Shown: in pieces, positions 20,978 to 39,548 of the stretch
Numbering within the stretch: position 1 is the first letter of the stretch
Layout: the number at the start of each line of letters is the position of its first letter
NCBI GenBank assembly: GCA_965263035.1
Contig: OZ253580.1
Location: forward strand, 3,616,001-3,680,000
DNA from: Acidobacteriota bacterium
Lineage (GTDB): Bacteria; Acidobacteriota; UBA6911; RPQK01; JAJDTT01
Length of the DNA stretch: 64,000 nt
Direction: 5' to 3'
Position numbers and translations under genes: made by a program
The notes under the pieces: generated by a model
The model's input: the letters and a program-made list of their open reading frames with translations, nothing else
Databases searched by the model: none
What the model was told of the DNA's origin: nothing

Positions 20978-20982
20978 AGCGA

Positions 20983-22452: not shown

Positions 22453-23775
22453 TCACTCGATGACCGGGCCGTCGTTGCGCCACCAGCGGAATTCGTTGCT
22501 TCCGATCTCGGCGACGGCGGCCACGTCCAGATCCCCGTCGCCATCCAGATCGGCCAGAATGACCATGTTGGCGCGAGGCCAGGAGGTTTTCAGGGAGTGG
22601 GCCGACCATGGCGACCGCGGGTCGCCGGGATTCTCAAGCCAGAGCACCTGTCCGGCCGAGCCCCACGCCGTAACCGCCACGTCCGGGTCGCCGTCGCCGT
22701 CCAGATCACCGGCCACCGCCTCGAAGGCGCTTGGAAGCGATTCCAGGATGGTGTGGCGGGGCCACGGGCCGTCTCCAGGTGTGCCGTCGTTTTCGTACCA
22801 GACGACTCCCGAATGGTCTTCACCGCCGCCGTTCGCTCCCATGCCCAGGGCCAGAACCAGATCCGGGTCGCCGTCGCGATCCATGTCTACCGGATTCCCG
22901 TGCATGGCACGGGGCGCGCTGGAGTCGATGAGATGCCGCTTCCAGGGCCGGGAGAGTGGATCGCCGCTGTTCTCGTACCAGAGGACCAGCCCATCGCCGG
23001 CTGCCGTTCCCATCAGGTCCTCGTCACCGTCTCCATCCACGTCGGCCACCCGGATACATCGAGTCTCCGCCACGTTCGCGTCAATCAAGTGTTTGGGCCA
23101 CTCCCGCCCCTCTTCATAGCAGAGCTGGGTCGGTGGACCGACGCACTCGGTTCCCGGGTTTTCGAACCAGGCGAACTGGTTCCCCATCCTCCAGGAGGAG
23201 GCGGCCACGTCCGGGTCGCCGTCGCCGTCCAGGTCCGAGATCGCGACGCTGTAGGCTCCGGCCAGGTTGGTGGTGATGACGTGCCGCTTCCAGAGTTCCC
23301 GGCTCTCCGGATTCCCAGGGTTCTGGAACCAGAGAAGGTGGCCGTAAAGATTCTTGACGATCACCACGTCCGGGTGGGTATCAAGGTTGACGTCGCCTAC
23401 CATGTGGCGCTCCAGCCGCTCCGGATCGTCCTTCTGGATGAAGCGGCGCCTGAAGGTCCCCGACCCGTCATTCTCGAACCAGTAGAGGTCGTTGGCGGGA
23501 GTGTAATCGGCACTGGTCAGGTCCAGATCGCCGTCCTTGTCCAGGTCGGCGGCCCAGATGCCGTAGGGATAGGCATAGCCCTCCATGATCAGGTGCTCGG
23601 TAAAGCGAACCGGACCCGGATCCGGAGAGGAGGTGTCAACCGGGACGCCGCCTTTGGAAACATCGTCCGGCTGGCAGGCCGCCAGGACGCCGGACAAGAG
23701 CAGCAGGCATCCAAGCCGGCGCCGGCTCCTGGCGCCGGTCCTTGGAACTCGAATCGAAATCGGGACGAATCTCAC
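22453..23775 (-). CDS. FG-GAP/VCBS repeat lipoprotein
   Basis: Seven D(L/V/M)D.DGD.D-type repeats, each followed by W(F/Y)EN; lipobox LAAC. Confidence 0.9.
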   Translation of the reverse strand: MRFVPISIRVPRTGARSRRRLGCLLLLSGVLAACQPDDVSKGGVPVDTSSPDPGPVRFTEHLIMEGYAYPYGIWAADLDKDGDLDLTSADYTPANDLYWFENDGSGTFRRRFIQKDDPERLERHMVGDVNLDTHPDVVIVKNLYGHLLWFQNPGNPESRELWKRHVITTNLAGAYSVAISDLDGDGDPDVAASSWRMGNQFAWFENPGTECVGPPTQLCYEEGREWPKHLIDANVAETRCIRVADVDGDGDEDLMGTAAGDGLVLWYENSGDPLSRPWKRHLIDSSAPRAMHGNPVDMDRDGDPDLVLALGMGANGGGEDHSGVVWYENDGTPGDGPWPRHTILESLPSAFEAVAGDLDGDGDPDVAVTAWGSAGQVLWLENPGDPRSPWSAHSLKTSWPRANMVILADLDGDGDLDVAAVAEIGSNEFRWWRNDGPVIE

Positions 23776-24234: not shown

Positions 24235-24573
24235 ATGGAAGTTCACACGGAGAGGGAAGACGGCGCCTTGATCGCTCGGGCGGTAGGCCGTATCGATGGC
24301 GCCAACGCGCGTGAATTCGAGAATGCCCTTCAAGCGACGCTCGGCAAGCATGATAGTGCGTTGATCCTGGATATGCAGTCTCTCTCCTACATCAGTAGCG
24401 CGGGCCTTCGCGTCATTCTAATGGCTGCAAAGGTGCTCCAGAGGCGGGGCGGGAAATTCGTGGTCTGTTCACTCTCGGATTCTATAAACGAGGTCTTTGA
24501 GATCAGTGGCTTCAACCGGATCATCCCGACCCACGCGACCCGTTCCGAAGCGGTCGCCGCTCTCGCCGAGTAG
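24235..24573 (+). CDS. STAS anti-anti-sigma factor (RsbV/SpoIIAA-like), copy 1
   Basis: GRID..NA..F, LSYISSAGLRV (phosphoacceptor Ser), VFEISGF; AAGGAG RBS. Confidence 0.93.
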   Translation: MEVHTEREDGALIARAVGRIDGANAREFENALQATLGKHDSALILDMQSLSYISSAGLRVILMAAKVLQRRGGKFVVCSLSDSINEVFEISGFNRIIPTHATRSEAVAALAE

Positions 24574-24766
24574 GAAGCTCCTGCGTACCCTTGATTTCGG
24601 AGACGCATCCGTCGGACAAGTGGCGACAAATTTGAAAAACGGGGATAACTGCCCCCCAATGGTGCCCCTGCCGGGATTTCGCCGCAGTTGCGGCCGCCGG
24701 CTCCCGACGCGGGGTATGGATGATCGGCAAGAGTAGGCGTACGGCGAAGGCTACGGGAGATCTGAC

Positions 24767-25957
24767 GTGGAAACGAATAAGTCTGACCTGATGAACCGAC
24801 CGTGCAAGATCCTGGTCGTGGACGATGAACCGGATCTTGAACCGCTCATGCTTCAACGCATGCGGCGGGCCATACGCTCCGGGGTTTACACTTTCGTGTT
24901 TGCCCGTAACGGTGTCGAAGCCCTTGATCGGCTGAACGAGGAGCAGGACATCGACATGGTGCTGTCGGACATCAACATGCCTCAGATGGACGGGCTCACC
25001 TTGTTGCAGCAGATCCCCAAGGTCGATCCCAACATCCGTTCCGTCATCATTTCGGCGTACGGCGACATGAAGAATATCCGCACGGCCATGAACCGGGGAG
25101 CCTTTGACTTCGTCACCAAGCCGCTGGATTTCAAGGACCTTCGAATCACCATCGACCGGACGGTCCGACACATGAAGGAGTGGCGCGAGGCCCTGGCTTC
25201 GCGTGACAAGCTGGTGGCGTTGCAGAACGAACTCGACGTCGCCAACCAGATGCAGCAATCCATCCTTCCCAGCCATTTCCCCAAGCGCGCCGACTACGAA
25301 GTCTCGGCCAGCATGGAGGCGGCGCGGAATGTGGGCGGAGATTTCTACGATGTCATCCACCTCCACGAAGGCCGGGTCGGCTTGGCCATCGCGGACGTTT
25401 CGGACAAAGGAGTTCCTGCCGCGCTCTTCATGATGTCCAGCCGGACTTTGCTCAAGGGCGCCGCCATCGGCACTCTGGATCCGGGCCGCGTCCTGGGAGA
25501 GGTCAACAACCTGCTTGACGAGGACAACGATGCCGCCATGTTCGTCACCCTCCTGTACGCGGTGTACAATCCGGCCACCGGAAAACTTACCTACGCCAAC
25601 GGAGGACACAACTCCCCACTCGTCGTCCATTCCGACGGAAGCTCGTCCCTGCTTCCACTCACTGATGGGATCGCCCTGGGTGTGATCCCCGGTCTCGATT
25701 TCATCGAGAACACCGTGGTCCTCTCACCCGGAGACACCGTGATTTTCTACACCGACGGCGTCACCGAGGCTATGGACGACGACGGCGAAGAGTTCGGTAC
25801 GGAACGTCTTTTCGAGATCTTTGCGGATGCGCCCCCGAGAGATTCCCAGGAGGCCAACGATGCGGTTTTCACGGCGGTAAGAGACTTTGTCGGGGATACT
25901 CCTCAATCGGACGACATCACTTGCATGGTGCTCTATCGAAGGGAGAGCGATCGTTGA
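24767..25957 (+). CDS. Response-regulator receiver fused to a SpoIIE/PP2C phosphatase (RsbU/RsbY-like)
   Basis: REC: ILVVDDE, LSDINMP.MDG, FVTKP. PP2C: VGGDFYD, IADVSDKGVPAA, NGGH, YTDGVTE, DDIT. Confidence 0.95.
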   Translation: METNKSDLMNRPCKILVVDDEPDLEPLMLQRMRRAIRSGVYTFVFARNGVEALDRLNEEQDIDMVLSDINMPQMDGLTLLQQIPKVDPNIRSVIISAYGDMKNIRTAMNRGAFDFVTKPLDFKDLRITIDRTVRHMKEWREALASRDKLVALQNELDVANQMQQSILPSHFPKRADYEVSASMEAARNVGGDFYDVIHLHEGRVGLAIADVSDKGVPAALFMMSSRTLLKGAAIGTLDPGRVLGEVNNLLDEDNDAAMFVTLLYAVYNPATGKLTYANGGHNSPLVVHSDGSSSLLPLTDGIALGVIPGLDFIENTVVLSPGDTVIFYTDGVTEAMDDDGEEFGTERLFEIFADAPPRDSQEANDAVFTAVRDFVGDTPQSDDITCMVLYRRESDR

Positions 25958-26373
25958 GCCGGAAGCTGTCCCTGAAGGTCAGACCCAGAGCCGAAGAATT
26001 GGATACGATCACAGTCGCCGTGGAGGAATTCGGAGACGCCGAACAATGGCCTCCCGACCTGATCTTTCGGGTCAATCTGGTGCTCGAGGAGGTGGGACTC
26101 AACATCATCAATCACGGGAGGACCGACGATCTTCACGAGATCGAGATCACTCTGACCTCGGAAGCGGAATCGCTCACCATCGAGATCGTGGATAATGGCC
26201 GACCCTTCGATCCGTTGACGGATGCGCCCGAGCCCGATTTGGACTCCGGGGTCACGGAGCGTGCCGTAGGTGGTCTCGGCGTCTATCTGGTGCGCACCAT
26301 GATGGATGAGTTGCACTATCGCCGCGACGGGAGCAGAAACTACCTGACCCTGGTCAAAGGGCGAGGCAAGTAA
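25954..26373 (+). CDS. Anti-sigma factor Ser kinase (RsbW-like, HATPase_c_2), copy 1
   Basis: LVLEE...NIINHG, D.GRPFDP, GGLGVYLV...MD. TTGA overlap with the phosphatase stop. Confidence 0.92.
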   Translation: MSRKLSLKVRPRAEELDTITVAVEEFGDAEQWPPDLIFRVNLVLEEVGLNIINHGRTDDLHEIEITLTSEAESLTIEIVDNGRPFDPLTDAPEPDLDSGVTERAVGGLGVYLVRTMMDELHYRRDGSRNYLTLVKGRGK

Positions 26374-26551
26374 CGCGGAGGTCCGACTCGGCCAGTGCGG
26401 CACCCCCTCCCGGCTTCCGGCGCGCCACGCTGCCGCGACGGGTGGAATGGACGTTATCTTTCGCGATAGCCTGACGTTGGCAGCTCCAGGCGAGAATCAC
26501 CCGGCGCTGTCAAACACGTAAGCGATCCGATCGGTCGCGTATGGGTTCGCG

Positions 26552-27439
26552 ATGGACAGGGCAGCTGCCATGGAGACGCCGTCCGGCAAAGCTGCGGCGG
26601 ATGAGAACTTCCCCGTCGGCTCCTGGTTGGTGCCGGCACACCTGAGACCCCATATTGCGACTTTCTATGCCTACGCCCGGGCGATCGATGATATCGCCGA
26701 CAATCCCGACTTGGATCCGTACGACAAGATCGAGCGACTGGACGGCTTCGCCAGTGTCGTGAGTGGTGCCGAGACAGGAGATCCAGCCTTTCGCAAAGCG
26801 CACGACGTCCGCCGTAGTCTGGATGCGACGCAGGTCACGCATCGGCATTGCGTCGATCTGACGCGCGCCTTCATACAGGATGCGACCAAACTGCGCTATG
26901 CCGACTGGAATGATCTCATCGGTTACTGCGATCTCTCCGCGGCGCCCGTGGGGCGCTACCTGGTCGACCTTCATGGCGAGTCAAGAGCCGCGTATCCGGC
27001 TTGCGATGCCCTATGCAACGCACTCCAGGTACTCAATCACCTGCAGGACTGCGGGGATGACTACAACTCGTTGAACCGGGTCTATCTGCCTCAGAACTGG
27101 ATGGCGGCAGCGGAAACGGGAGTCGAGGCGCTTGGCCACAGGCGTTCATCTCCGGCACTCAGGCAAGTGTTGGATCGGTGCCTCGATGCAACCGAGACGC
27201 TGTTGGAGTCGGCCGATCGTTTGCCGGGTCAGTTTTGCAACCTCCGTTTCGCCATGGAGACGGCTGTGATCATCGCCATCGCCAGGAAGCTCAGTGCTGA
27301 GTTGCGCCGGCGGGATCCCTTGGCAGAGCGTGTCGTGCTGACCAAAGCTCAATACGCGGCCTGCTGTTTGCGTGGAGTCGGTCGGATCCTGCTCCGAAGG
27401 GTCTGGCGCCGGCGCGCTGAAGGCGAGATTCCTGCATGA
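26552..27439 (+). CDS. hpnC: Hydroxysqualene synthase HpnC
   Basis: ENFPVGS, ARAIDDIAD, YC..SAAPVGR, DALCNALQVLNHLQD, RVYLP; first gene of an hpnCDE trio. Confidence 0.92.
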   Translation: MDRAAAMETPSGKAAADENFPVGSWLVPAHLRPHIATFYAYARAIDDIADNPDLDPYDKIERLDGFASVVSGAETGDPAFRKAHDVRRSLDATQVTHRHCVDLTRAFIQDATKLRYADWNDLIGYCDLSAAPVGRYLVDLHGESRAAYPACDALCNALQVLNHLQDCGDDYNSLNRVYLPQNWMAAAETGVEALGHRRSSPALRQVLDRCLDATETLLESADRLPGQFCNLRFAMETAVIIAIARKLSAELRRRDPLAERVVLTKAQYAACCLRGVGRILLRRVWRRRAEGEIPA

Positions 27440-27532
27440 TTTTCGCTCCTCCGGTCGAGGAACGCGAGCTGGTGGGTCGATGTCGCGTCGGTTGTGTGAC
27501 ATGACGATTTTTGCCGCAGGAATGCTGACGAC

Positions 27533-28420
27533 GTGAGGACGGCATCTCGATCGCAGGCCGCTCCGAGCAGGCGGTCAGGTGATCAGGTCAAGCCCAGGGA
27601 TCACGTGAATCGCGTCGTAGCGCGATCAGGCACGTCGTTCCTTTGGGGCATGAGGGCGCTTTCGGCGGAACGGCGCCGTGCGATCTACGCCATTTACGCG
27701 TTCTGCCGGGAAGTCGACGACATTGCAGACGAACCGGGCGAAAGCGCTGACAAGAGGCGAGCACTGGTGCGGTGGCGGGAGGAGATCGACCGACTCTACG
27801 CAGGGAAGCCGAGTTGGCCGACGACCAGGGCGCTATTGAAACCGGTTCGGCGTTTCAACTTGCCTCAAGAGGAGTTTCTCGCGGTGATCGAGGGCATGGA
27901 AATCGATGCCAGACCCATCGTGCGGATGCAGAATCTGGATGATCTGTTGCACTATTGCCGCAAGGTCGCCGGAGCCGTGGGAATGCTTTCCATCCATGCT
28001 TTCGGCGTCCCGCGGAACCCTGGATTTCAGATCGCCGAGAAGCTCGGGAACGCCCTGCAGTTGACCAACATTCTGCGTGACCTGAAGGAGGATGCTGAAT
28101 TGCAGCGTCTCTATGTGCCGCTGGAACTGCTCAGTAAGAACGGTGTCGCCACCACTTCGTTGAACGCTGTCCTGGTTCATCCAGGCTTCAGCGGTGCGTG
28201 TGCGGAACTAGCCATCCTGGCACGCAATTACTACGCCGAGACCGAAAGACTGATCGCGGAATTCGGATGGCGGAGGATTCGGCCGGCCGTTCTCATGATG
28301 GCGGTGTACCGGGAATTGCTTGATCGCCTGGAAGAGCGGGGATGGACGCAAATCGATGTTTCGGTCCGGCTGACGCGACTCCGGAAGGTTTTGCTCGCTC
28401 TGCGTTACGGACTTTGCTGA
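27533..28420 (+). CDS. hpnD: Presqualene diphosphate synthase HpnD
   Basis: SGTSF, YAFCREVDDIAD, YC.KVAGAVG, LG.ALQLTNILRDLKEDA, RLYVP. Confidence 0.92.
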   Translation: MRTASRSQAAPSRRSGDQVKPRDHVNRVVARSGTSFLWGMRALSAERRRAIYAIYAFCREVDDIADEPGESADKRRALVRWREEIDRLYAGKPSWPTTRALLKPVRRFNLPQEEFLAVIEGMEIDARPIVRMQNLDDLLHYCRKVAGAVGMLSIHAFGVPRNPGFQIAEKLGNALQLTNILRDLKEDAELQRLYVPLELLSKNGVATTSLNAVLVHPGFSGACAELAILARNYYAETERLIAEFGWRRIRPAVLMMAVYRELLDRLEERGWTQIDVSVRLTRLRKVLLALRYGLC

Positions 28421-28432
28421 CGGACGTTCACC

Positions 28433-29710
28433 GTGCCCCGAACCCACGTCATCGGCGCCGGCTTGGCGGGTCTTGCCACCGCAGTGTCACTCGTGCGGCA
28501 GGGCCAGGACGTGACGCTCTACGAAAAAGGCCGGCATGCGGGAGGCCGCTGCCGCTCATACGTCGATGCCAAGCTTGATCGCACGATAGACAACGGCAAC
28601 CATCTGCTGCTGAGCGGCAACCAGGCCGCGATGCGCTACCTGGCAGACATCGAGGCCAACGACTCTCTGATCGGCCCGGCTTCCGCCTGCTTTCCCTTCC
28701 TGGATTTACGCACGGGTCAGCGATGGCTGCTGCGGCCGAATGCCGGGAGAGTCCCGTGGTGGATCCTGAACCCCAGGCGGCGGGTGCCGGACACACGGGT
28801 CTGGAACTACCTTTCGGCGCTGCGGTTTGCCACGGCGGGCGCCGATACCACGGTGACCGACTGCGTCGGGGACACCGGGGTTCTGTTCGAAAGATTCTGG
28901 AGACCGCTGGCGGTTGGGGCATTGAATACGCCGGCTCGAGCCGGCGCGGCGCACCTTCTATGGGCCGTGTTGCGCGAGACCTTCGCCAAGGGAGAGGCGG
29001 CCTGCCGGCCACGGATCGCCAAGTTGGGACTCTCCGCCGCCTTCGTGGAGCCGGCGCTGAAATTCCTCCGCCGAAAGGGCGCGATGGTTCGGTTTGGCTG
29101 GCGCTTACGCAGGATCAGCTATCTGAGCCGCCGCGTCGATGGTCTGGACTTCGGTTCAGAGAGGGTTCAGTTGCAAGACGCTGAGGCCGTGGTTTTGGCA
29201 TTGCCGCCGCCGGCTGCGGCGGACCTGGTGCCGGCGCTGGCTGTACCCGATGAAACTCAGGCCATCGTCAACGCCCATTTCCGCCTGTCCGCACCTGCCA
29301 GCCTGCCGCCGGAGCTTCCCCTGCTAGGGCTCATCGGGGGGACCGCGCAGTGGCTCTTCGCACGTGGTGACGTTGCCTCGATCACGGTCAGTGCGGCGGA
29401 TGCGCTGGCCGCCGAGCCAGCTCCAACCATAGCCCGAAAGGCGTGGAACGACGTTGCCGGTGCACTTGGCCACGACCCGGAGACATTGCCAACGTATCGA
29501 ATCGTCAAAGAAAAGCGGGCCACGTTTGCCCAGACGCCGGAGCAGGTAAAGCGCCGCCCGCAGACCAGAAGTGCATTTGCCAACCTGTACTTGGCGGGGG
29601 ACTGGACCAATACGGGTCTGCCCGCAACCATCGAGAGCGCCGTTCGTTCGGGTCACACGGCCGCCCGCGCCGTCCTCCATGATGCACTGAAGCATGTCAA
29701 CCCGACATGA
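28433..29710 (+). CDS. hpnE: Hydroxysqualene dehydroxylase HpnE (FAD-dependent)
   Basis: GAGLAGL, GGRCRS, DNGNHLLL, EKRATF, LAGDWT.TGLPATIESAVRSG. Confidence 0.93.
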   Translation: MPRTHVIGAGLAGLATAVSLVRQGQDVTLYEKGRHAGGRCRSYVDAKLDRTIDNGNHLLLSGNQAAMRYLADIEANDSLIGPASACFPFLDLRTGQRWLLRPNAGRVPWWILNPRRRVPDTRVWNYLSALRFATAGADTTVTDCVGDTGVLFERFWRPLAVGALNTPARAGAAHLLWAVLRETFAKGEAACRPRIAKLGLSAAFVEPALKFLRRKGAMVRFGWRLRRISYLSRRVDGLDFGSERVQLQDAEAVVLALPPPAAADLVPALAVPDETQAIVNAHFRLSAPASLPPELPLLGLIGGTAQWLFARGDVASITVSAADALAAEPAPTIARKAWNDVAGALGHDPETLPTYRIVKEKRATFAQTPEQVKRRPQTRSAFANLYLAGDWTNTGLPATIESAVRSGHTAARAVLHDALKHVNPT

Positions 29711-29936
29711 CGGAGGTGATGGGTTCACAGGGAACCGCCGCCGGAGGACCCGAGGAACGGCGAGTCCCGGGGCCTCGGATAAACTCGGAGACGGCAGGAG
29801 AAGCGGGAGACTGAGGTCCACTCCACAGAAGCTGTGGCGTCGGAGTATCTCCCAAAGAATCAACAAAATACGGGCGAATCCCCAAGACGGAACCCAGGGG
29901 ACCAACCTCCCCTTGGTCGCGTGAGGAAAGGGTCGC

Positions 29937-30569
29937 TTGAGTTGGCCGCCCCGCGACACGACTTCCCAGGGCCTGCGCCGGCTTGATGGGCGGGCACAGG
30001 ATTGGCTCAGTGCCAATATGCCCGACCGCGCGGCTGCGGCGACGGGCCTCAGTATGGTCTTCGCTCACCTTTCCCAACGAAATATCGAAGGCATGCTGCG
30101 CGGAACCATCATCGCCATGGCCATCGTTTCTTTCATCCTGATCCTCGTTTTCAGGAGTGTGCGTCTTGGACTCGTCAGCCTGATACCCAATTTCATTCCC
30201 GCAGCCATGAGCTTCGGTCTGTGGGGCTATCTCTTCGGTCGTGTGGGTATTGCCTCATCTGTGGTCACGGCAATCGCCTTCGGCATCGTCGTGGACGATA
30301 CGATCCATTTTCTGAGCCATTATCTGAAGGCTCGCCGCAAGGGCCTCCCGGCGCCCGAGGCTGTGCGATCCACCTTCAATGCCGTCGGCCAAGCGTTGTG
30401 GAGTACGACCGCGGTCTTGTCGGCTGGTTTCCTGGTATTCGCTTCGTCGGGATTCGAGATCAGTTGGGCGCTTGGGATCTTGGTCACCATCACCATCGTT
30501 TTCGCGCTCCTGGCCGATTTCTTACTGCTCCCGACTCTGCTGATGGCTATCGATCGGAGAAAATCATGA
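29937..30569 (+). pseudogene. C-terminal fragment of an MMPL/RND family transporter (5'-truncated)
   Basis: Only about 200 aa: ATGLSMVFAH, LVSLIPN.IP, IAFGIVVDDTIHF, VGQAL..T..L.AGF, DFLLLP.LL. This is the second TM half of what is normally a 750-800 aa protein. Upstream frames are closed and no convincing start is present. Confidence 0.8.
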
Positions 30570-31390
30570 TCCAGTTTCATCTCACCCGATCGGCGCTCGT
30601 GTTTGTCGTCTCTTGCATTGCCTTCCTTGCGTGTCTGAGTCAGCAGCCTCTCGCCCGTTCAGACGACGCCACGCCCGAGGAAATCGGACTGAAGATCGCT
30701 CTCGAAGCTCGAGAGCAGGCGGAGGGTTTTGGCAATTTCACGGCTCGTCAGACCATGGTGCTGCGCAACAAGCAGGGCCAGGAGAGTCGGCGTCAGCTCC
30801 GGGTAAGGGTTCTCGAGGTCGCCGGAGACGGAGATAAGAGCATGTTCGTCTTCGATGAGCCGCGTGATGTCAACGGGACTGCGCTACTAATCCATTCCCA
30901 TAGAGGCAGCGCGGACGGGCAGTGGCTATATTTGCCCGCTCTGAAACGGGTCAAGCGGATCAGCTCGTCCAACCGTTCCGGCTCCTTCATGGGCAGTGAA
31001 TTCGCGTATGAGGACATGAGCGCACAGGAAGTGGAGAAATTCAGCTATCGGTACGTGCGTGACGAGCCTTGCGGGGAGTTGACGTGCACCGTGTCCGAAC
31101 GGGTCCCGGTGGACAAGAAATCGGGTTACCGCCGTCAGCTGGTATGGCGGGACAAAGACGAGTTACGCGTCTGGAAGGTGGAGTACTACGACCGCAAGGA
31201 TTCGCATCTGAAGACTCTCACCCTGGGAAATCACCGGCAGTACCTGGATCGTTACTGGCAGGCCGGCGAGATGACCATGGTGAACCATCTCACCGGAAAG
31301 AGCACCGTTCTGACCTGGACGGAGTATCAGTTCCGCACCAAGCTCAACGACCGCGACTTCACCCGCACCGGACTGCAACGGGTTCGTTGA
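30566..31390 (+). CDS. Outer membrane lipoprotein-sorting (LolA-like) protein
   Basis: Signal peptide; F.EPRDV.GTALL, QWLYLPALKRVKRISS, SFMGSEFAYED, YYDRK...LKTL. ATGA overlap with the MMPL fragment. Confidence 0.88.
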   Translation: MIQFHLTRSALVFVVSCIAFLACLSQQPLARSDDATPEEIGLKIALEAREQAEGFGNFTARQTMVLRNKQGQESRRQLRVRVLEVAGDGDKSMFVFDEPRDVNGTALLIHSHRGSADGQWLYLPALKRVKRISSSNRSGSFMGSEFAYEDMSAQEVEKFSYRYVRDEPCGELTCTVSERVPVDKKSGYRRQLVWRDKDELRVWKVEYYDRKDSHLKTLTLGNHRQYLDRYWQAGEMTMVNHLTGKSTVLTWTEYQFRTKLNDRDFTRTGLQRVR

Positions 31391-32640
31391 TGCTCCTCCG
31401 GTCCGTTTTTCAGTGCGTGCCGCTCGGCGCTGCCTGGATACTGGTTTCAGTCTGTCTGGTCGGGGTGCGGGCCGAGATCGTCAGGCGCGAGTTCTCCGGG
31501 CGCTTGAGCGTCGAAGGCCGGTGGCATCCACAACGTGGGGCCTATGCTGGCCAACGCTCACATGCGAGCGGTTTTTTCGCCGAACCCAAACTCTATCTCG
31601 AAGACCATGCGGGCCGAAGCCTCAATCTGGTGCCGTTCTTTCGCTACGATGCCGGGGACCCGCGCCGCACCCATGCCGATCTGCGTGAGGCCTATCTGCT
31701 GCTGTTCGGTGATATGGGCAATGATGAATGGGCGCTGCGGCTGGGCGTCGACCAGGTCTTCTGGAGTGTCACCGAGTCACGCCATCTTGTCAACATCGTC
31801 AACCAGATCGACTTGGTGGAACACCCGTACAAGGAGCCTAAGCTGGGTCAACCCATGGCCCATCTCACCTTTTCAGGAGATTGGGGAACAGCCGAAGTAT
31901 TCGGCCAGACCTATCACCGTGGCCGCACCTTTCCGAGCCGTTTCGGCCGCCTGCGTTTCCCGGTCGTCGTGGACCATGATCGGGCCGCCTATGAGAGCGA
32001 CGCCAAGCAGTGGCATCTGGATGTCGCCGGCCGCTACAGTCGCAGTTTCGGGCCCCTCGACCTGGGCATGAGCGTTTTCGACGGCACTAGTCGAGACCCC
32101 TTTCTGATTCTGGACCTGGACCGCGCCGAAGAACCGTCCCTGGTCCCGTATTATGAGCAGATCCGGCAGTTCGGGCTGGACGCCCAGCTCACGGCCGGTT
32201 CGTGGCTGTTCAAGCTCGAGGCGATTCGGCGAACCGGCGCCCGAAACCGCCTCGGTGTGGAAGAGGACTACTCGGCTTCCTCCTTTGGCGGCGAATATAC
32301 GTTCTATTCCGTATCGGGCTCGGCTGTGGATCTAACGCTGCTCAGCGAATGGAACTACGACGACCGGCGCCAATTTGCCACCAACATCTTCCAGAATGAT
32401 GTTTTCCTTGCCGCGAGGATAGCGTTCAATGACGTTCAGAGCACAGAGATTCTCACCAGCATTCTGCGAGACGCCGACAGTGCCGGCCAAGTACTGACTC
32501 TGGAATTGAACCGGCGCATCTCGGACCAGTGGTCTCTGCGTCTGGAGGCGATCGCTCTTCGTGGTATCAGGGAAGCGGATCTCACCTATGTGACTCGGCG
32601 CGACAGCTTCGTCGAGTTGAACTTGATCTACAATTTTTGA
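31390..32640 (+). CDS. Putative outer-membrane beta-barrel protein (usual partner of MMPL + LolA-like)
   Basis: Signal peptide; DLREAY, G..QVFW.VTES.HLV.IVNQ.D; amphipathic strands; terminal LIYNF. Confidence 0.75.
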   Translation: MLLRSVFQCVPLGAAWILVSVCLVGVRAEIVRREFSGRLSVEGRWHPQRGAYAGQRSHASGFFAEPKLYLEDHAGRSLNLVPFFRYDAGDPRRTHADLREAYLLLFGDMGNDEWALRLGVDQVFWSVTESRHLVNIVNQIDLVEHPYKEPKLGQPMAHLTFSGDWGTAEVFGQTYHRGRTFPSRFGRLRFPVVVDHDRAAYESDAKQWHLDVAGRYSRSFGPLDLGMSVFDGTSRDPFLILDLDRAEEPSLVPYYEQIRQFGLDAQLTAGSWLFKLEAIRRTGARNRLGVEEDYSASSFGGEYTFYSVSGSAVDLTLLSEWNYDDRRQFATNIFQNDVFLAARIAFNDVQSTEILTSILRDADSAGQVLTLELNRRISDQWSLRLEAIALRGIREADLTYVTRRDSFVELNLIYNF

Positions 32641-32878
32641 AAGCCGGTATTGTCCCATCGGCAGCAATCGACCGCCTCAGCTGAGTCCCAAACTCCGTTC
32701 TGCCCACGCCTGAGATGCCGCCTTCCGCTTCTTTGGAATTCAGCTGCGCGCTGGATATTCCGGCGAGGATTTCTATCTGTAGGCCGTGCGGTAGTGGTTT
32801 TGCTTGGATGTCCACCGGTGGTAGTATCCCCGATAAATTGTTGGAAGCCTCAGGTTGCAATATCCGGGAGTCAGAGCT

Positions 32879-33217
32879 ATGGAGGTACATGCCGAGCGGG
32901 AAGATGGAATCTTGATCGCCCGAGCGGAGGGCCGTGTCGACGGCACCAACGCCCGCGAGTTCGAGGAGGCGCTCCACGCGGCCATCGGGGAGGATGATCG
33001 ACTCCTGATCATGGACCTGCAGGAACTCTCCTACATCAGCAGCCCCGGCCTTCGAGTTTGTCTGATGATTGCCAAGAAGCTCCAGAGACAGGGTGGAAAG
33101 CTCGTGGTCTGCTCGCTCACCGAAACCGTCAACCAGGTGTTTGAGATCAGTGGTTTCAGCAGAATCATCCCCACTCATGCCTCCCGGTCCGAAGCGGTCG
33201 CCAAGCACGGCGGCTAG
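32879..33217 (+). CDS. STAS anti-anti-sigma factor, copy 2
   Basis: 112 aa, about 70% identical to copy 1 by manual count; LSYISSPGLRV. Confidence 0.93.
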   Translation: MEVHAEREDGILIARAEGRVDGTNAREFEEALHAAIGEDDRLLIMDLQELSYISSPGLRVCLMIAKKLQRQGGKLVVCSLTETVNQVFEISGFSRIIPTHASRSEAVAKHGG

Positions 33218-33351
33218 GATTTCACCTTGGAGACCAGGCTTGGCGCCGGCCGAGTCTTTCGCATTTCGCTGTCGGGCACGCCTGATGGCGAGCGGTATTG
33301 GAAGCGGAAGGAGATTTCGTTGGTGACGAGGCACAGTCGTCCCTTTTTTCC

Positions 33352-33387
33352 TGCATGACGTTCCGTCGGAGCGAGAGGCATCATTGA
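33352..33387 (+). pseudogene. 3' scar of a deleted second REC-PP2C phosphatase gene
   Basis: CMTFRRSERHH* aligns codon for codon with CMVLYRRESDR* (25922-25957) and has the same TTGA overlap into RsbW. Confidence 0.7.
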
Positions 33388-33803
33388 GCCGGAAGCTTTC
33401 CCTGGAGATCGACCCCAGAGTTGACGAGCTGAGTACGATTACGGCCGCCATCGAGCAGTTCGGGGACGCGGAGCAATGGCCGCCCGATATGGTCTTTCAA
33501 ATCAATCTGGTTATCGAAGAGCTGGGACTCAACATCATGACCCACGGGAAGAGCGAGGATCTCGAGAAGATCGAGATCATGCTGACCGCGGAAGGGGAGT
33601 CCCTCACCATCGAAATCGTGGACAATGGTCGTCCGTTCGACCCGACCAGCGATGCTCCCGAACCCGATCTGGGTTCCGAATTGGGGGAACGCAGCATTGG
33701 TGGGCTCGGTGTCCATATCGTACGCAGCTTGGTGGACAGCTTGTGCTACCGGCGTCAGGGGGGGAGAAACCATGTGACTCTGGTCAAGGAGCGGGTCCGG
33801 TGA
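33384..33803 (+). CDS. Anti-sigma factor Ser kinase (RsbW-like), copy 2
   Basis: Paralog of 25954-26373 (SRKLSL, FGDAEQWPPD, LTIEIVDNGRPFDP, GGLGV). Confidence 0.92.
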   Translation: MSRKLSLEIDPRVDELSTITAAIEQFGDAEQWPPDMVFQINLVIEELGLNIMTHGKSEDLEKIEIMLTAEGESLTIEIVDNGRPFDPTSDAPEPDLGSELGERSIGGLGVHIVRSLVDSLCYRRQGGRNHVTLVKERVR

Positions 33804-34984
33804 AGCGATGCGCCGGCCGGCCGGCCGGTCTTTTCATACTGGCAGTTGCTTGGTTAATGACAGCGCTGCCGGTGCCGGCGCAGCAACCCGGCGTTTCCGG
33901 CCAACGCATTCTCTTCGGACAGTCCGCCGCTTTCAGCGGTCCTGCCCAGGAATTGGGTATCAGCATGCGTCTCGGGATCGAGGCCGCCTTCCACGAGCTC
34001 AACCGGGCGGGCGGCGTCCACGGCCGGCGATTGGAGTTGACTGCGCTGGACGACGCCTACGAGCCGGAAGCCGCCGTCGCCAACACCCAGGCACTGATCA
34101 GGGAACAAAAGGTTTTTGCCCTCATCGGCGCCGTCGGCACACCGACCTCACGCGCGGCCTTACCGATTGCCGCGGACGCGAGTGTGCCCTATATCGCCCC
34201 GTTCACGGGTGCCGCGTTCCTGCGCGATGCCAATTGGAGCAATGTCATCAACCTGCGAGCCTCCTACAACCAGGAGACGGAGGAAATGGTGGCCCGGCTG
34301 ACCGAGGACATGGGCATCAAGCGGATCGCCGTGTTGTACCAGGACGATTCCTTCGGTCGAGCCGGATACCGTGGAGTGCGGGCCGCACTCGACCGGAGAA
34401 AGATGACGCCGGTTGCCATCGGTTTGTATCCTCGCAATACCCTGGCGGTGAAGATGGCTCTCCTGGATGTGAACGAGGGAGACCCCAAGGCCGTGATTCT
34501 CATCGGGGCGTACAAACCTCTCGCCACGTTCATCTCATGGGCGCGGTTTTCGGGCCTGCATGCCGTATTCATGAACATCTCCTTCGTCGGCAGCAACGCG
34601 TTGGCGAAAGAGCTCGGTCCCGGCGGTGCCGGTGTTTACGTCACTCAGGTCGTGCCCTTTCCGACCGACAGATCTGTTCCCATCGTCCTCGACTACCATC
34701 GCGCTCTTTCCGCCTATGCATCCGACGCGGTTCCCGGGTTCATATCCTTCGAAGGCTATCTGGCCGGACGCCTGGCCATTGCCGGCTTGAAGAAGTGCGG
34801 GCGTGAGGTCAGTCGAACCGGTTTTCTGGACGGTTTTCGCCAAGCCGGAATGATCGACCTCGGCGGGTTCCGACTTCGTTTCGGCAAAGAGGACAACCAG
34901 GGCTCGGACGCCGTTTTCCTGACCGTAATCGGTCGTGACGGTCGATATCGTCCGATCAGCTCACTGCTGGAAGCGGCGCCGTGA
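33800..34984 (+). CDS. Periplasmic solute-binding protein (Leu/Ile/Val-amide type, Peripla_BP_6)
   Basis: Signal peptide; ILFGQSAAFSGP, GGVHGRRLEL..LDDAYEP, VFALIG.VGTPT, NLRASY, YQDDSFG. GTGA overlaps on both sides. Confidence 0.9.
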   Translation: MKRCAGRPAGLFILAVAWLMTALPVPAQQPGVSGQRILFGQSAAFSGPAQELGISMRLGIEAAFHELNRAGGVHGRRLELTALDDAYEPEAAVANTQALIREQKVFALIGAVGTPTSRAALPIAADASVPYIAPFTGAAFLRDANWSNVINLRASYNQETEEMVARLTEDMGIKRIAVLYQDDSFGRAGYRGVRAALDRRKMTPVAIGLYPRNTLAVKMALLDVNEGDPKAVILIGAYKPLATFISWARFSGLHAVFMNISFVGSNALAKELGPGGAGVYVTQVVPFPTDRSVPIVLDYHRALSAYASDAVPGFISFEGYLAGRLAIAGLKKCGREVSRTGFLDGFRQAGMIDLGGFRLRFGKEDNQGSDAVFLTVIGRDGRYRPISSLLEAAP

Positions 34985-37170
34985 TCGAACGACTGAACCG
35001 TTTGGTCGGAAGTCTGCTGCAGAGTCGCTTTCGGATCTCGACCCAGCTCTACGCCACCATCGGGGGCGCCGTCGCTCTGACCATTTCCGCGAGCCTGGTG
35101 GGCTGGTTTTCCTTCGATCGCGTAGGCGATCTCCAGCGGCGGGTCAATGAACTTCGGTTTCCGGAATTGGAGGCGGCGTTCGGCGTCGCCCAGTACAGTG
35201 GAGCCTTGGTAGCGGCCGCACCGCGCCTGACCACGGCCGAAACGCCGGAGGACTTCAAAAAGGTCGCAGCCGGCATCGCCGAAGCGAATCAGGCGCTTGA
35301 GGACCAATTGGCCGTTCTGGAGCGGCAAGATTCGGCAGATGAACGCTTCCAGCGCATACGTGCGCATGCCGATACGCTGATCTCCAACATCCGGGCGATT
35401 GAAACCGACATGTCCGCGATTTACACGCTGACCGATCGGAGTGCGGATCTGCGAACGGAACTCTTGGATTTGCAGGGAAGCCTGCAGCGGGTGATCTTCC
35501 CGGCCGTCGACGACCAGTTCTTCTACACCATCACGGGGCACCGCACCCTGGGTGAACCTCCGGCCCCTCGTTGGAAACATTTTTCGGAAGCTGAGTTCGA
35601 TCGTTTTCGCCATCTGACCGATCTTCTCGCGGACGCCAATATCGCAACCCAACTTCTGGACAGCGCCTTCACGGTTTCGGATGCCTTCTTGATTGAGCCT
35701 TTGAGGGACAAGTTCGAGGCCTCCCGCAACCGCATAGAACTGAGCCTTTCGACGTTGGAAGGATCCCAGTTGGGTGGCCGGATCTCGTCCGATTTACAAC
35801 GCCTGTTCGAGTTGGGGGCCGGGGAGGAGGGCTGCCTGAATCTGCTGGTCCGTCAACTCAGACTTACGGCGCGGCAGAGGGGGCTCTTGGCGAGAAACCA
35901 GGAGATCACCATCGATCTGGTGACCGAAGTCGATGAGCTGGTGAAAGCGTCGCAAGCGAGCGCGGCAGCGGCCACTCAAGAATCCACACAGGCCATCCTG
36001 GCAGGCCGGATCCTGCTCGTCGCCATCAACGGGCTCAGCATCGTTGGAGCCGTGCTCATCGCCTGGCTGATCGTGGGCCGGATATTGCTGCGCCGCCTGG
36101 CGCTGTTGTCGCAGCGCATGCGGCGAATGGCCGGCGGAGAATTGGAGGGCACGGTCGAGATCGAAGGACGGGACGAGGTAGCCGACATGGCCGCGGCCCT
36201 CGAGGTGTTTCGCCGTCACGCCCTGGAGGTTCAGCGTCTGAACCTGGTGGAGAAGCTGGCGGAGGAATTGCGCGGTAAGAACGACCAATTGGAGAGCGTG
36301 CTCGCAGACTTGCGGAAGGCTCAGGACCAGATCGTCATGCGTGAGAAGCTGGCGGCGCTCGGTGAGCTCACCGCGGGCGTCGCCCATGAGATCAGGAATC
36401 CTTTGAACTTCGTCAAGAACTTCGCGGAGGCGTCGGAGGAACTCTTGGAGGAACTCCAGGAAATCCTCGAAGAAGAGAGCAAAAAATTGAAAGCGGACGA
36501 CCGCGAACTGGTCGAGGAGTTGATTCAGGATCTCAACGATAATCTTCGGCGCATCCACTCACACGGTGAACGGGCCAACCGGATCGTTCACGACATGCTC
36601 ATGATGGGACGCGGCTCAGGCGAGTGGCAGGTGACCGACGTCAACAATCTGCTCGATGAACACACCCGGCTCGCCTACCATAGCGCCAGGGCGGCCGATC
36701 CTGACTTCCAACTCCACATGGAGATGAGTCTGGATCCGGAGACGGGTCACTTCGAAGTCATTCCGCAGGACATGGGCCGGGTTTTTCTGAACATGGTGAG
36801 CAACGCCTGCTACGCCACCGATCAGAAACGGCGCGCGGCTGTCGAGGCGGGGAAAGGGCCTTTCGACTACATGCCGACTCTGTGGCTTGCCACCCGGCGT
36901 CTTGATGACCGCGTGGAGGTCCGAATCAAGGACAATGGGAACGGAATTCCAGCCGAGATCGTGGACAGGATCTTCAATCCGTTCTTCACGACGAAACCCA
37001 CCGACCAGGGAACAGGGTTGGGCCTTGCTCTTTCCAACGACATCGTGCGGGAGCATGGAGGATCCATTCGAGTGGAAACCGTACCCGGCGAGTACACCGA
37101 AATGATTGTCGAGGTTCCCGTGATGCGCCCCGTGGCCATGGAAGGGGCCCCCGGCCGGCAACCGAGTTAG
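34981..37170 (+). CDS. Membrane sensor histidine kinase (TorS-like helical periplasmic domain, HAMP, HisKA, HATPase)
   Basis: Two TMs around a roughly 300-aa helical domain; HAMP GRDEVADMA.A; H-box TAGVAHEIRNPLN; DNGNGIP, FNPFFTTKP..QGTGLGL. The TorS likeness of the sensor domain is by eye. Confidence 0.88.
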   Translation: MIERLNRLVGSLLQSRFRISTQLYATIGGAVALTISASLVGWFSFDRVGDLQRRVNELRFPELEAAFGVAQYSGALVAAAPRLTTAETPEDFKKVAAGIAEANQALEDQLAVLERQDSADERFQRIRAHADTLISNIRAIETDMSAIYTLTDRSADLRTELLDLQGSLQRVIFPAVDDQFFYTITGHRTLGEPPAPRWKHFSEAEFDRFRHLTDLLADANIATQLLDSAFTVSDAFLIEPLRDKFEASRNRIELSLSTLEGSQLGGRISSDLQRLFELGAGEEGCLNLLVRQLRLTARQRGLLARNQEITIDLVTEVDELVKASQASAAAATQESTQAILAGRILLVAINGLSIVGAVLIAWLIVGRILLRRLALLSQRMRRMAGGELEGTVEIEGRDEVADMAAALEVFRRHALEVQRLNLVEKLAEELRGKNDQLESVLADLRKAQDQIVMREKLAALGELTAGVAHEIRNPLNFVKNFAEASEELLEELQEILEEESKKLKADDRELVEELIQDLNDNLRRIHSHGERANRIVHDMLMMGRGSGEWQVTDVNNLLDEHTRLAYHSARAADPDFQLHMEMSLDPETGHFEVIPQDMGRVFLNMVSNACYATDQKRRAAVEAGKGPFDYMPTLWLATRRLDDRVEVRIKDNGNGIPAEIVDRIFNPFFTTKPTDQGTGLGLALSNDIVREHGGSIRVETVPGEYTEMIVEVPVMRPVAMEGAPGRQPS

Positions 37171-37276: not shown

Positions 37277-38710
37277 ATGGATTTTCGATCCTGCGATCTG
37301 GACGCCCAGTACTACGACGAAATGTTCCGTGAGGACGGCGCCCCACGAGAACATAGTCAATTGCTGTACGAAGCCCTGTGCCGACTGTCGGTCGAGGAAG
37401 TCGGCAGCATTCAGGAACGGGTCACGCGTTCGTTCTCCCAAGAAGGAATTACCTTTACCGTTTACGGTGACGATGAAGCCGAGGAGCGCATCATCCCCAT
37501 CGACTGCGTTCCCCGAATTCTTTCGGGGGATGAGTGGCGCCAGTTGGAAGCCGGCCTGACCCAGCGACTCACGGCTCTGAACCGTTTTCTGCAGGATATC
37601 TACAACGAGGCTCGCATTATCGCGGACGGTGTCATCCCGTTGGACATGGTGCGGGGTTGTCCCCAGTACCGCCTGGAAATGCGTGGGTTTTCGGCGCCCC
37701 ATGGCGTCTGGATCGGCGTTTGCGGCACTGACCTGGTGCGCACCAATGACGGATTCTGCGTGTTGGAAGACAACCTGCGGGTTCCCTCGGGGGTTTCGTA
37801 CATGATCGCCAACCGGAAGGCGGTGAAGGCCAGTCTTCGCCTCGTCTACAGAAACTCCCGAGTTAGAGAAGTGGAGCACTACGGACGCGTCCTGCTCCAG
37901 ACCCTGCGAGAGTTGGCGCCCAGAGATCGGTCGGGACCCTGCATCGTGCTGCTGACACCGGGTGTCTACAATTCCGCGTTCTACGAGCACATATTTCTGG
38001 CAAACGAGATCGGTGCCGAGTTGGTGGAGGGCCGCGACCTATTGGTCAACGATGGCTACGTCTACATGCGAACTACGGCGGGCCTGAAGCGCGTCGATGT
38101 GATCTACCGGCGTGTGGACGACGATTTTATCGATCCTCTCGTGTTTCGTCCCGACTCTCTGCTTGGCGTACCCGGGCTGATCCACGCCTACAAGCAGGGC
38201 AACGTATCCCTGGTCAACGCACCCGGCACCGGGGTCGCCGATGACAAGAGCGTCTATGCCTATGTGCCGGACATGGTCCGCTACTACTTGGGGGAGGAGC
38301 CGCTTCTTCAGAACGTGAAGACCTGGATCTGCCGCCGACCCGAAGAGCTCGAATATACTCTCGACAACCTGGAGAACCTGGTGGTGAAGCGGGTAGGAGA
38401 GTCCGGCGGATATGGGATGCTGGTCGGTCCGCACTCGACTTGCCAAGAGCGTGACGAATACGCGAAGCAGGTGCGGGCCAATCCGGCCGATTTCATTTCG
38501 CAGCCTGTTCTGTCGCTCTCACGCGCGCCTTGCGTGATCGATGGCCAGGCCGAACCGCGCCACGTCGATCTGCGTCCGTTCGTCCTCAATGGCCGCCGGA
38601 TCCGAATAGTGCCCGGAGCTTTCTGCCGTGTGGCGCTGCGCCGGGGCAGCCTGGTGGTGAACTCGAGTCAGGGCGGAGGCGGCAAAGACCTGTGGGTGTT
38701 GGGAGACTGA
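37277..38710 (+). CDS. Circularly permuted type 2 ATP-grasp protein (putative peptide ligase)
   Basis: YYDEM, GITFTVY, IP.D.VPR, VLEDNLRVPSGVSY, LTPG.YNSAFYEH, VDVIYRRVDDDFIDPL, NAPGTGVADDK, PRHVDLRPF, VVNSSQGGG.KD.WV. Confidence 0.95.
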   Translation: MDFRSCDLDAQYYDEMFREDGAPREHSQLLYEALCRLSVEEVGSIQERVTRSFSQEGITFTVYGDDEAEERIIPIDCVPRILSGDEWRQLEAGLTQRLTALNRFLQDIYNEARIIADGVIPLDMVRGCPQYRLEMRGFSAPHGVWIGVCGTDLVRTNDGFCVLEDNLRVPSGVSYMIANRKAVKASLRLVYRNSRVREVEHYGRVLLQTLRELAPRDRSGPCIVLLTPGVYNSAFYEHIFLANEIGAELVEGRDLLVNDGYVYMRTTAGLKRVDVIYRRVDDDFIDPLVFRPDSLLGVPGLIHAYKQGNVSLVNAPGTGVADDKSVYAYVPDMVRYYLGEEPLLQNVKTWICRRPEELEYTLDNLENLVVKRVGESGGYGMLVGPHSTCQERDEYAKQVRANPADFISQPVLSLSRAPCVIDGQAEPRHVDLRPFVLNGRRIRIVPGAFCRVALRRGSLVVNSSQGGGGKDLWVLGD

Positions 38711-39548
38711 GTGGAGCGGGTCGCGGCGTTCCTGCGACCGCTGATGAGTGATTCTGCTGGTATGACACGACTGCAACCGGGGAGGGAGCCATGAGAGAAG
38801 GAACGAAGATCCCGCTGCACACGCGGCTGCTGCGGGGAGCGGTGGGGAAGCTGTTGCTGGTGGTGATCTGTCTGCTGTGCGGGACGGCGGCGGCGCAGGC
38901 GGCGGTGGACGACGAGGTGCTGTACGTGTTCAACACCTTCTCGTTCATGGTCTGGGGCGCCATGGTGATGTGGATGTGTGAAGGTGTCCCGTTTTCGTGG
39001 ACGGTTTATTAGTGCGGTTTACGTTGGTCTAGGTTGTAATACTCCTTCTGTCGTTGGGGAGCAAGACTTCCTCCCGCTGAATGTCAATGGCCATAGAAAA
39101 TGTCAGGGTGTTGACCATTGACAGAGCGTTCTTTCTTCTGTGGGGGGACTGATGGAGGCGTCAGCAAAAGGGCTCACGTTGTGGGAAATCTCTGATTTTC
39201 CACAATGGGATACCGCGTAACGAGGGGGCCTCGGCGCTCTCTTTCCAGGGATTTAAGAGTGGTGTGTATCTCTTTGCATCCGGGGGTCTCAGGGGGGCAG
39301 CGCCCCCCTGCCCTCTTCAATCGTGTCGCGCGCGACGCTTGGTGCGACGGTGATGGTGCTGGTTTCGTGGTCGAGCAGCGCGAAAACGAACCGGTTCGTG
39401 AGGCGGCGTCAGTCCTTCTGAGCCTCCCGGCCCGCAGGACCGGCATTGGAGGCAGGAAAGACGACCCCAGCAGGTCATCACTGCACTCGGCGAGAGCACG
39501 AATCGGGGATCTCGTCGTCCGGATCGAGTTTCGACGACGGCGTGGGTC

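Follow-up and report, generated by a model that had tools for sequence, protein, structure and literature searches.

We analyzed a window of 64,000 nucleotides from an Acidobacteriota bacterium (contig OZ253580.1, genome positions 3616001–3680000), in which genes were chosen by domain scans (Pfam and NCBIfam) over the open reading frames (ORFs). A sequence-only reading of this DNA had proposed a signalling cascade in which an orphan solute-binding protein and a TorS-like histidine kinase feed a partner switch composed of a REC-PP2C phosphatase, a STAS protein, and an RsbW-type serine kinase. As a whole, this observation was borne out, and the switch genes lie in two groups at 24235–26373 and 32879–37170 (Table 1). 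The genes named in that reading were all present, but STAS2 (32879–33217) had been overlooked, so that the window contains two STAS/RsbW pairs. In the first group, the start of RsbW1 overlaps the end of the phosphatase gene by 37 nucleotides in another frame, and REC-PP2C and RsbW are separate ORFs. In the second group, RsbW2, the binding protein, and the kinase had been described as chained by GTGA overlaps, and both overlaps are present in the sequence: GTG at 33800 lies on TGA at 33801–33803, and GTG at 34981 on TGA at 34982–34984. The REC-PP2C gene is 9.0 kb upstream of the kinase gene, separated from it by RsbW1, hpnC, hpnD, hpnE, a fragment of an MMPL gene, a LolA-like gene, a gene without a family match, STAS2, RsbW2, and the binding protein gene. 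The longer ORFs 33476–34984, 30002–31390, and 31069–32640 were dropped as gene models, and starts at 33800, 30566, and 31390 were preferred. The G+C content was approximately 63% in the region and 0.58–0.61 over the signalling genes. A promoter and terminator scan of the window performed at chance (4 versus 3.4 and 15 versus 12.8 expected), and transcription units were not delimited by it.

The proposed chain from binding protein to kinase, REC-PP2C, and the STAS/RsbW pair was supported because the gene order is conserved. Among 40 relatives, a full-length kinase ortholog was found in nine, namely in 7 of 8 same-genus genomes (88–95% identity), in G023 (76%), and in G021 (60%), and the match in the remaining 31 was confined to the catalytic core; this set includes G016, without which the counts become 9 of 39 with the kinase and 30 without. 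In G021, the STAS, REC-PP2C, RsbW, binding protein, and kinase genes form one uninterrupted same-strand cluster, as in a single operon, and G023 has the full five-gene cluster together with a second STAS-PP2C-RsbW copy across the hpnCDE and MMPL block. A scan of one genome per species gave 80 loci from other lineages, 28 of which matched the kinase from residue 19 or earlier and were counted as full-length. All 28 belong to metagenome-assembled genomes labelled as at least seven phyla, bin labels that can be wrong, and the labels include Chloroflexota/Dehalococcoidia, Gemmatimonadota, Acidobacteria/Bryobacterales, Acidimicrobiia, Latescibacterota, Alphaproteobacteria (Paracoccaceae and Rhodobacteraceae), Pseudomonadales, and Bacteriovoracaceae. 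The binding protein gene was immediately upstream of the kinase gene in 27 of these loci, and a REC-PP2C gene was near the kinase in 25 (within approximately 3 kb upstream in 24, and within 6.4 kb in one more). An RsbW-like gene and a STAS gene were each present in 23. Synteny of the binding protein, kinase, STAS, RsbW, and SpoIIE genes had been named as a check on the cascade, and the linkage was kept across these phylum labels. Identity across the loci was 49–84% for the binding protein and 46–83% for the phosphatase, and lower, at 26–69%, for the sensor domain of the kinase. From the conserved order it is fairly likely that the cassette is a conserved five-gene signalling unit (STAS, REC-PP2C, RsbW-like kinase, Peripla_BP_6 protein, and a kinase with a TorS-fold sensor) that drives a partner switch.

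Table 1. Signalling genes of the window, followed by neighbouring features (positions are those of the window)
Feature	Position	Strand	Basis
STAS1, anti-sigma-factor-antagonist type, switch copy 1	24235–24573	+	Pfam STAS E 6.9e-22; NCBIfam TIGR00377 84.9 bits, cut-off 53.45
REC-PP2C response-regulator phosphatase	24767–25957	+	Pfam Response_reg E 5e-25, SpoIIE E 5e-54
RsbW1, RsbW/SpoIIAB-like serine kinase	25921–26373	+	Pfam HATPase_c_2 E 2e-26
STAS2, switch copy 2	32879–33217	+	PF01740 75 bits (genome 3648888–3649196); TIGR00377 80.5 bits
Spacer where copy 1 and other genomes have the REC-PP2C gene	33203–33351		Alignment of copy 1 and copy 2
RsbW2, RsbW-like serine kinase	33384–33803	+	Pfam HATPase_c_2 E 2e-23
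Peripla_BP_6 binding protein, proposed co-sensor	33800–34984	+	Pfam Peripla_BP_6 E 6e-56
Histidine kinase: transmembrane segment, TorS-fold periplasmic domain, transmembrane segment, HAMP, HisKA, HATPase	34981–37170	+	Pfam; structure model
hpnC, hpnD, hpnE (two squalene/phytoene-synthase-family, one amine-oxidase-family)	26552–29710	+	Pfam SQS_PSY twice, Amino_oxidase
MMPL/RND transporter gene, C-terminal fragment (last 226 codons)	29889–30569	+	Pfam MMPL
LolA-like gene	30566–31390	+	Pfam LolA_like E 1e-57
Gene without family match	31390–32640	+	No Pfam or NCBIfam match
Circularly permuted ATP-grasp gene (CP_ATPgrasp)	37277–38710	+	Pfam CP_ATPgrasp_2 E 5e-156
IS3-family insertion sequence, 1782 bp	38979–40760	-	Pfam rve, HTH_21
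Amt ammonium transporter	end 41976	+	Pfam; TIGR03644 'marine subtype' 505.6 bits, just under cut-off 514
Alpha-E gene	41983–42993	+	Pfam
Transglutaminase-like gene	end 43891	+	Pfam
Peptidase S15 gene	43895–45589	+	Pfam
Hydantoinase B/oxoprolinase gene	45748–47475	+	Pfam
Alginate-export-type porin gene	47503–49170	+	Pfam
Formamidase-family gene	50155–51036	+	Pfam
Sulfatase gene, upstream flank	18931–20466	-	Pfam
FG-GAP repeat gene, upstream flank	22453–23775	-	Pfam

Motif conservation in the switch proteins was judged on 29–30 aligned sequences, and both window copies were checked. The acidic pocket (DD) and the phospho-acceptor Asp, Ser, and Lys of REC, together with the metal-binding Asp motifs of PP2C, were invariant or at least 90% conserved in 29 sequences. 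The ISSxGLR motif of STAS, which contains the presumed phospho-serine, was at least 90% conserved in 30 sequences and is intact in STAS1 and STAS2, and the conserved N-box, DNG, and GGLG motifs of RsbW are intact in RsbW1 and RsbW2. The phosphorylated residue of STAS is presumably the one known from SpoIIAA/RsbV. In comparison with four same-genus genomes, the ratio of nonsynonymous to synonymous substitution rates (dN/dS) was 0.09–0.27 for all seven cassette genes of both copies, with 0.10–0.24 for STAS2 and 0.14–0.19 for RsbW2; for L017, which ends before STAS1, the value listed under that gene in fact compares STAS2. Apparent stops inside the kinase genes of G004 and G007 were rejected as a sign of pseudogenes, and correspond to a natural stop codon 2–3 codons earlier. 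The locus has the components of a partner switch fed by a two-component system: a REC-PP2C protein with intact receiver and catalytic motifs, a STAS protein whose serine motif is conserved, a kinase of the RsbW type that has its ATP-binding boxes, and a histidine kinase linked to REC-PP2C in 25 of the 28 loci, in G021, and in G023, the two being 9 kb apart in the window.

The kinase has approximately 300 periplasmic residues bordered by two hydrophobic segments, with HAMP, HisKA, and HATPase_c domains after these. A Pfam search found neither a REC nor an HPt domain in it, and the protein ends 15 residues past the ATPase domain. The sensor domain (residues 41–350), modelled from a 28-sequence alignment with a predicted local distance difference test score (pLDDT) of 87.8, was all-helical, and the six best Foldseek matches in the PDB were TorS sensor domains (best E 3.7e-6, TMq 0.72, TMt 0.81), three of them in TorS-TorT complexes. 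PilJ and McpS-type chemoreceptor domains followed with much lower scores. The model thus predicted the periplasmic double four-helix-bundle fold of TorS sensors, and a dedicated binding protein gene without a transporter lies beside the kinase gene, as in the TorS family. Sequence comparison told against a closer relationship. PF21689 (TorS_sensor_domain) scored 18.9 bits versus a cut-off of 27, with homologs of the sensor reaching E 3.7e-5, and a PDB sequence search with the sensor domain gave no relevant match. NCBIfam TIGR02956 (TMAO_torS) was the best-scoring named kinase family, yet it reached 145 bits versus a cut-off of 676.5. Judged by these scores, the kinase is not a TorS ortholog or family member despite its TorS-type fold; the term "TorS-like" in the sequence-only reading was therefore appropriate for the sensor fold (the top six Foldseek matches) but not for family membership. 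The sensor family is a large one: of 8000 candidates scored in a word-based search, 772 proteins reached E ≤ 0.001, and a profile search over 50%-identity cluster representatives returned 2108 at E ≤ 0.001, 1095 at E ≤ 1e-10, and 240 at E ≤ 1e-30.

The N-terminus of the binding protein resembles a signal peptide, as judged by eye. It had been called an orphan, and this description held: neither a permease nor an ATPase gene was found in the window or among the shared neighbours, and a family scan detected only two Peripla_BP_6 genes in the whole genome. None of the 47 ABC (ATP-binding cassette) ATPase hits (ABC_tran) and none of the four permease hits (BPD_transp_2) of the genome fell inside the window, as had been claimed, and the nearest permease was more than 1 Mb away. 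The binding protein might nevertheless be an ordinary component of an ABC importer whose permease is encoded elsewhere, the kinase sensing without it and the adjacency reflecting co-regulation only. Its nearest solved relatives, 4kv7 (E 2e-68), 3lop, and 4m88, are structural-genomics entries annotated as binding proteins of Leu/Ile/Val-type transporters, NCBIfam models for proteins that bind branched-chain amino acids or urea matched it weakly, and the four permeases do exist in the genome. However, all four are remote, and the own permease and ATPase genes that accompany HAAT-type (LivJ/LivK) proteins were found neither in the window nor among shared neighbours, despite the Peripla_BP_6 domain. 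Moreover, the gene is translationally coupled to the kinase gene, it keeps its place immediately upstream in all but one of the full-length loci, and the sensor has the fold of TorS, which works via a binding protein. We consider the importer explanation improbable. Co-folding of the binding protein with the sensor domain, run without controls, gave a median score of 0.30 (mark, 0.32), a value that bears on binding in neither direction. A protein atlas search with the binding protein returned generic binding-protein clusters only, and the literature on 4KV7 only unrelated papers; any assignment of a ligand class is a guess.

The sequence-only reading had further stated that the window contains no sigma factor and no DNA-binding response regulator, and that its sole receiver domain is that of REC-PP2C. 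These statements were correct: none of the 15 Sigma70_r2 hits and one of the 13 receiver hits of the genome, that of REC-PP2C, lie inside. Thirteen receiver-domain hits and few histidine kinases make a small two-component repertoire for a genome of 6.2 Mb. The genome has 5 SpoIIE hits, 8 STAS hits, and 3 RsbW-like genes, two of these in the window. All-against-all clustering of the ORFs of 25 cassette loci gave no ABC transporter or sigma factor family among those common to at least four loci, and no further family in more than nine.

Several observations count against the cascade as proposed. In this genome the kinase and REC-PP2C genes lie 9 kb from each other and are probably on different transcripts, and six receiver proteins elsewhere without an adjoining kinase are possible alternative partners. 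The sequence relationship of the sensor to TorS is weak, the binding protein is of another family than TorT, and no sigma factor or other partner could be named as the target of the cassette. Among the full-length loci, L048 has no partner gene of the cassette, L031 has the binding protein and kinase genes only, with 8.8 kb of upstream sequence available, and L040 and L050 have no detectable RsbW or STAS genes; in L027 the contig ends 794 bp upstream, so partner genes there cannot be judged. The kinase might signal mainly to a DNA-binding response regulator encoded elsewhere, with REC-PP2C served by other kinases and the cascade being a neighbourhood only; the 9-kb distance, the six unpaired receiver proteins, and L031, in which the kinase and binding protein occur without REC-PP2C, all favour this. 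It is, however, opposed by the short distance between REC-PP2C and the kinase in most loci and by their common operon in G021 and G023. The other kinases of the genome have receivers of their own, adjacent or fused. In addition, related kinases that match in the core only (44–51% identity) also adjoin REC-PP2C genes in L052, L065, L073, L081, L094, and L096, from records labelled Bacteroidota, Ignavibacteriae, or Chthonomonas, and pairing with REC-PP2C regulators may be more widespread in this kinase subfamily. We give signalling to a different regulator a low probability and retain REC-PP2C as the proposed partner of the kinase.

Copy 2 of the switch aligned with copy 1 only at 32879–33202 and 33352–33793, the two STAS-RsbW copies having 74% DNA identity. 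Copy 2 cleanly lacks the REC-PP2C gene, and its 149 bp at this point correspond to 1363 bp of copy 1. As read from this alignment, the cassette in this genus is partly duplicated, split by the hpnCDE and MMPL block, and without its second phosphatase gene, which has been lost. A single phosphatase presumably serves two diverged STAS/RsbW pairs in this genome, forming a branched switch. The duplicates in G023 (L013 8300–10400 and L014 690–2790) are 98% identical over 2.1 kb and flank the hpnCDE-MMPL block, and this identity, unlike the 74% in the window, points to recent duplication or gene conversion. L046 (2973–12184; labelled Latescibacterota) is split in the same way as the window, with STAS-PP2C-RsbW followed by STAS-RsbW-binding protein-kinase, the halves lying 2.8 kb apart and a 583-codon minus-strand ORF between them.

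In comparison with G001, a deletion of approximately 2.9 kb at 29711–30569 took a gene of 406 codons together with the initial ~563 codons of the MMPL/RND gene beside hpnE; the remaining fragment matches residues 564–789 of the G001 ortholog, and no other copy was found in the genome at E ≤ 1e-20. The LolA-like gene and the gene without a family match, usual companions of MMPL, are kept in G001, G002, G005, and G023, and the entire MMPL-LolA-no-family-gene block is absent from G007. The switch copy upstream of hpnCDE might have been recruited in this lineage for hopanoid/squalene synthesis and the MMPL exporter, rather than for nitrogen genes. In the genus and in G023, hpnC indeed follows STAS-PP2C-RsbW directly on the same strand, and the two nearly identical copies of G023 flank the block. 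However, hpnC, hpnD, hpnE, or the MMPL block was near the cassette in none of the 80 other-lineage loci, and purifying selection acts on the switch genes even though the MMPL gene of the window is truncated and G007 lacks the block. Recruitment for hopanoid synthesis is accordingly very unlikely in our judgment; the hpnCDE adjacency, confined to the window's genus and G023, is lineage-specific, and hpnCDE is not part of the cassette. That copy 2 is a decaying duplication remnant without phosphatase or function, as the clean loss of REC-PP2C might suggest, is extremely unlikely, since STAS2 and RsbW2 are intact with their motifs, are retained in 4 of 4 same-genus genomes with the low dN/dS given above, and occur in the same split layout in L046.

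The sequence-only reading had placed the cascade directly upstream of a nitrogen-related operon. The link to that operon was strengthened by co-occurrence: an ortholog of the circularly permuted (CP) ATP-grasp gene CP_ATPgrasp (E ≤ 1e-60) was present in 9 of 9 relatives with the kinase and in 0 of 31 without, that is, in the same 9 of 40. The operon is downstream as stated, but its makeup had to be specified as CP_ATPgrasp, Amt, Alpha-E, and transglutaminase genes, with an insertion sequence (IS) after CP_ATPgrasp. It is upstream of the cassette in G021, and downstream in G023 and in the window's genus, and the Amt, Alpha-E, and transglutaminase genes likewise adjoin the cassette in G001, G021, and G023 and at several further loci. 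Within 10 kb in the 28 other-lineage loci, CP_ATPgrasp was found in 8, a close Amt in 7, and either in 11. Among five cassette genomes checked that lack CP_ATPgrasp in the locus, four had an ortholog elsewhere (50–75% identity). A regulatory link is weakened by three findings: no more than three independent lineages (genera g1, g9, and g11) underlie the co-occurrence, both CP_ATPgrasp and a close Amt are missing from the surrounding 10 kb in 17 of the 28 loci, and in the window the IS element now separates CP_ATPgrasp from Amt. These data support co-inheritance of cassette and operon and point to a nitrogen-related role; regulation is not shown by them. The CP-ATP-grasp/Amt/Alpha-E/transglutaminase operon is the most likely controlled function, a choice that we regard as tentative.

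The IS3 element has nine further full-length copies in the genome (97.6–100% identity) and one split across contig ends; at its site, G001 has a 267-bp gap between genes instead. The listed ORF start of Amt, 40618, is inside the IS, and the true start is probably after 40760. A 209-bp stretch before the IS (38770–38978) recurs at genome 3828037–3828245 with 95.7% identity, beside another STAS gene (3828378–3828686, minus strand), and may be a trace of IS-mediated rearrangement. An alginate-export-type channel gene directly follows the kinase gene in G021 (L015 7224–8552) and in L022 (5900–6817), and is near it in L035 (13313–14590); in the window, a gene of this type is 10 kb downstream of the kinase, among peptidase, oxoprolinase, and formamidase-family genes. 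On the upstream flank, long plus-strand ORFs opposite the sulfatase and FG-GAP genes (18931–23775) had no family match and are probably not genes.

The cassette was compared with known systems. TorS belongs to the hybrid kinases, carries REC and HPt domains, and passes its signal to TorR, a DNA-binding regulator. TorT-TorS of Escherichia coli and Vibrio parahaemolyticus (PDB 3o1h, 3o1i, 3o1j, 3i9y, and 3i9w) resembles the window system in the all-helical two-module periplasmic domain, which was the best structural match, and in the dedicated transporter-less periplasmic binding protein encoded beside the kinase. It differs in the C-terminal REC and HPt domains of TorS, neither of which the window kinase has, and in the binding protein, since TorT is listed as Peripla_BP_1 in a review table (PMC8050422) versus Peripla_BP_6 here. 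The Bacillus cereus RsbK-RsbY-RsbV-RsbW-SigB system shares a two-component kinase feeding a REC-PP2C phosphatase (RsbY), which in turn acts on STAS and RsbW partners. Its kinase RsbK is a multi-domain hybrid located in the cytoplasm, and the locus includes sigB, whereas the window has a periplasmic binding-protein sensor and no sigma gene. In Mycobacterium smegmatis, according to excerpts of PMC10950880, it was shown experimentally for RsfS-RsfR-RsfB with RsbW1 and SigF that the kinase phosphorylates REC-PP2C, which dephosphorylates the STAS antagonist, and that phosphorylation lowers the phosphatase activity. RsfS, which shares the kinase/REC-PP2C/STAS scheme, has a CHASE3 sensor and no binding protein, with SigF as output, whereas no sigma factor is linked here. 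A sigma factor as the sequestered target, usually encoded in the locus in the RsbK-RsbY and RsfS-RsfR types, was not found in the window; a target encoded at a distance is conceivable.

Gram-negative partner switches under phosphorelay control include HptB-HsbR-HsbA of Pseudomonas aeruginosa, CrsR-CrsA of Shewanella (PMC6482189), and SypE-SypA of Vibrio fischeri (PMC12826045). As far as excerpts of these sources describe them, input is via an HPt protein or hybrid kinase with no binding protein, in contrast to the window, and the STAS protein or kinase acts on targets encoded elsewhere (RpoS and FlgM). An output not encoded nearby therefore has precedent, because switches of the HsbA/CrsA type act on such distant targets. 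HsbR, CrsR, and SypE are fusions of REC, PP2C, and RsbW-like kinase in one protein, whereas these are separate overlapping genes here. In the full-text literature (subscription journals not covered), no paper was found on a binding protein and TorS-type kinase wired to REC-PP2C, STAS, and RsbW. Excerpts of a 2021 review on binding proteins in signalling (PMC8050422) contain neither "PP2C" nor "anti-sigma", and its passages from 12 of 14 places name BasB, which is paired with an archaeal chemoreceptor, as the sole Peripla_BP_6 protein that takes part in signalling. The wiring had been put forward as not previously described; this applies to the full combination, which was not found in print, but the kinase-REC-PP2C-STAS half is already known from B. 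cereus and M. smegmatis.

Gene order, fold, and motifs are the grounds on which we infer ligand, binding, phosphotransfer, and target, the binding-protein and kinase steps by analogy with TorT-TorS and the phosphatase steps by analogy with RsfS-RsfR-RsfB and RsbK-RsbY. The secreted binding protein would capture a small periplasmic ligand, possibly a nitrogen compound, and, in the manner of TorT with TorS, would dock on the kinase at its all-helical TorS-type sensor domain. The kinase would then phosphorylate the receiver domain of REC-PP2C, and this phosphatase, acting against the RsbW-like serine kinases, would set the phosphorylation state of STAS, so that STAS or RsbW would bind or release a target encoded outside the cassette. 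Receiver phosphorylation could switch the phosphatase either on or off; in the B. cereus switch, its effect on the phosphatase is reportedly of opposite sign to that in M. smegmatis. In its boldest form, which we hold to be rather unlikely, the proposal describes a sigma-factor-free periplasmic sensor of nitrogen compounds that would control, via phospho-STAS/RsbW switching, the ATP-grasp/Amt operon travelling with it between phyla, with one phosphatase and two STAS/RsbW pairs serving two outputs, one of them maybe hopanoid synthesis.

The proposed cassette joins two well-studied principles, binding-protein sensing as in TorT-TorS and two-component partner switching as in RsbK-RsbY and RsfS-RsfR, in what would be a mobile five-gene unit retained in records that bear the labels of at least seven phyla. 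It is well suited to the question of how partner switches act without an attached sigma factor, and its split layout, with one phosphatase and two switches, illustrates how a cassette may be rewired after duplication. The recurrent association with the ammonium transporter and the uncharacterised CP-ATP-grasp, Alpha-E, and transglutaminase genes gives a route into that system. If control of the operon by the cassette is true, it would provide the first regulator and a physiological context for the long-unexplained CP-ATP-grasp amidoligase system.

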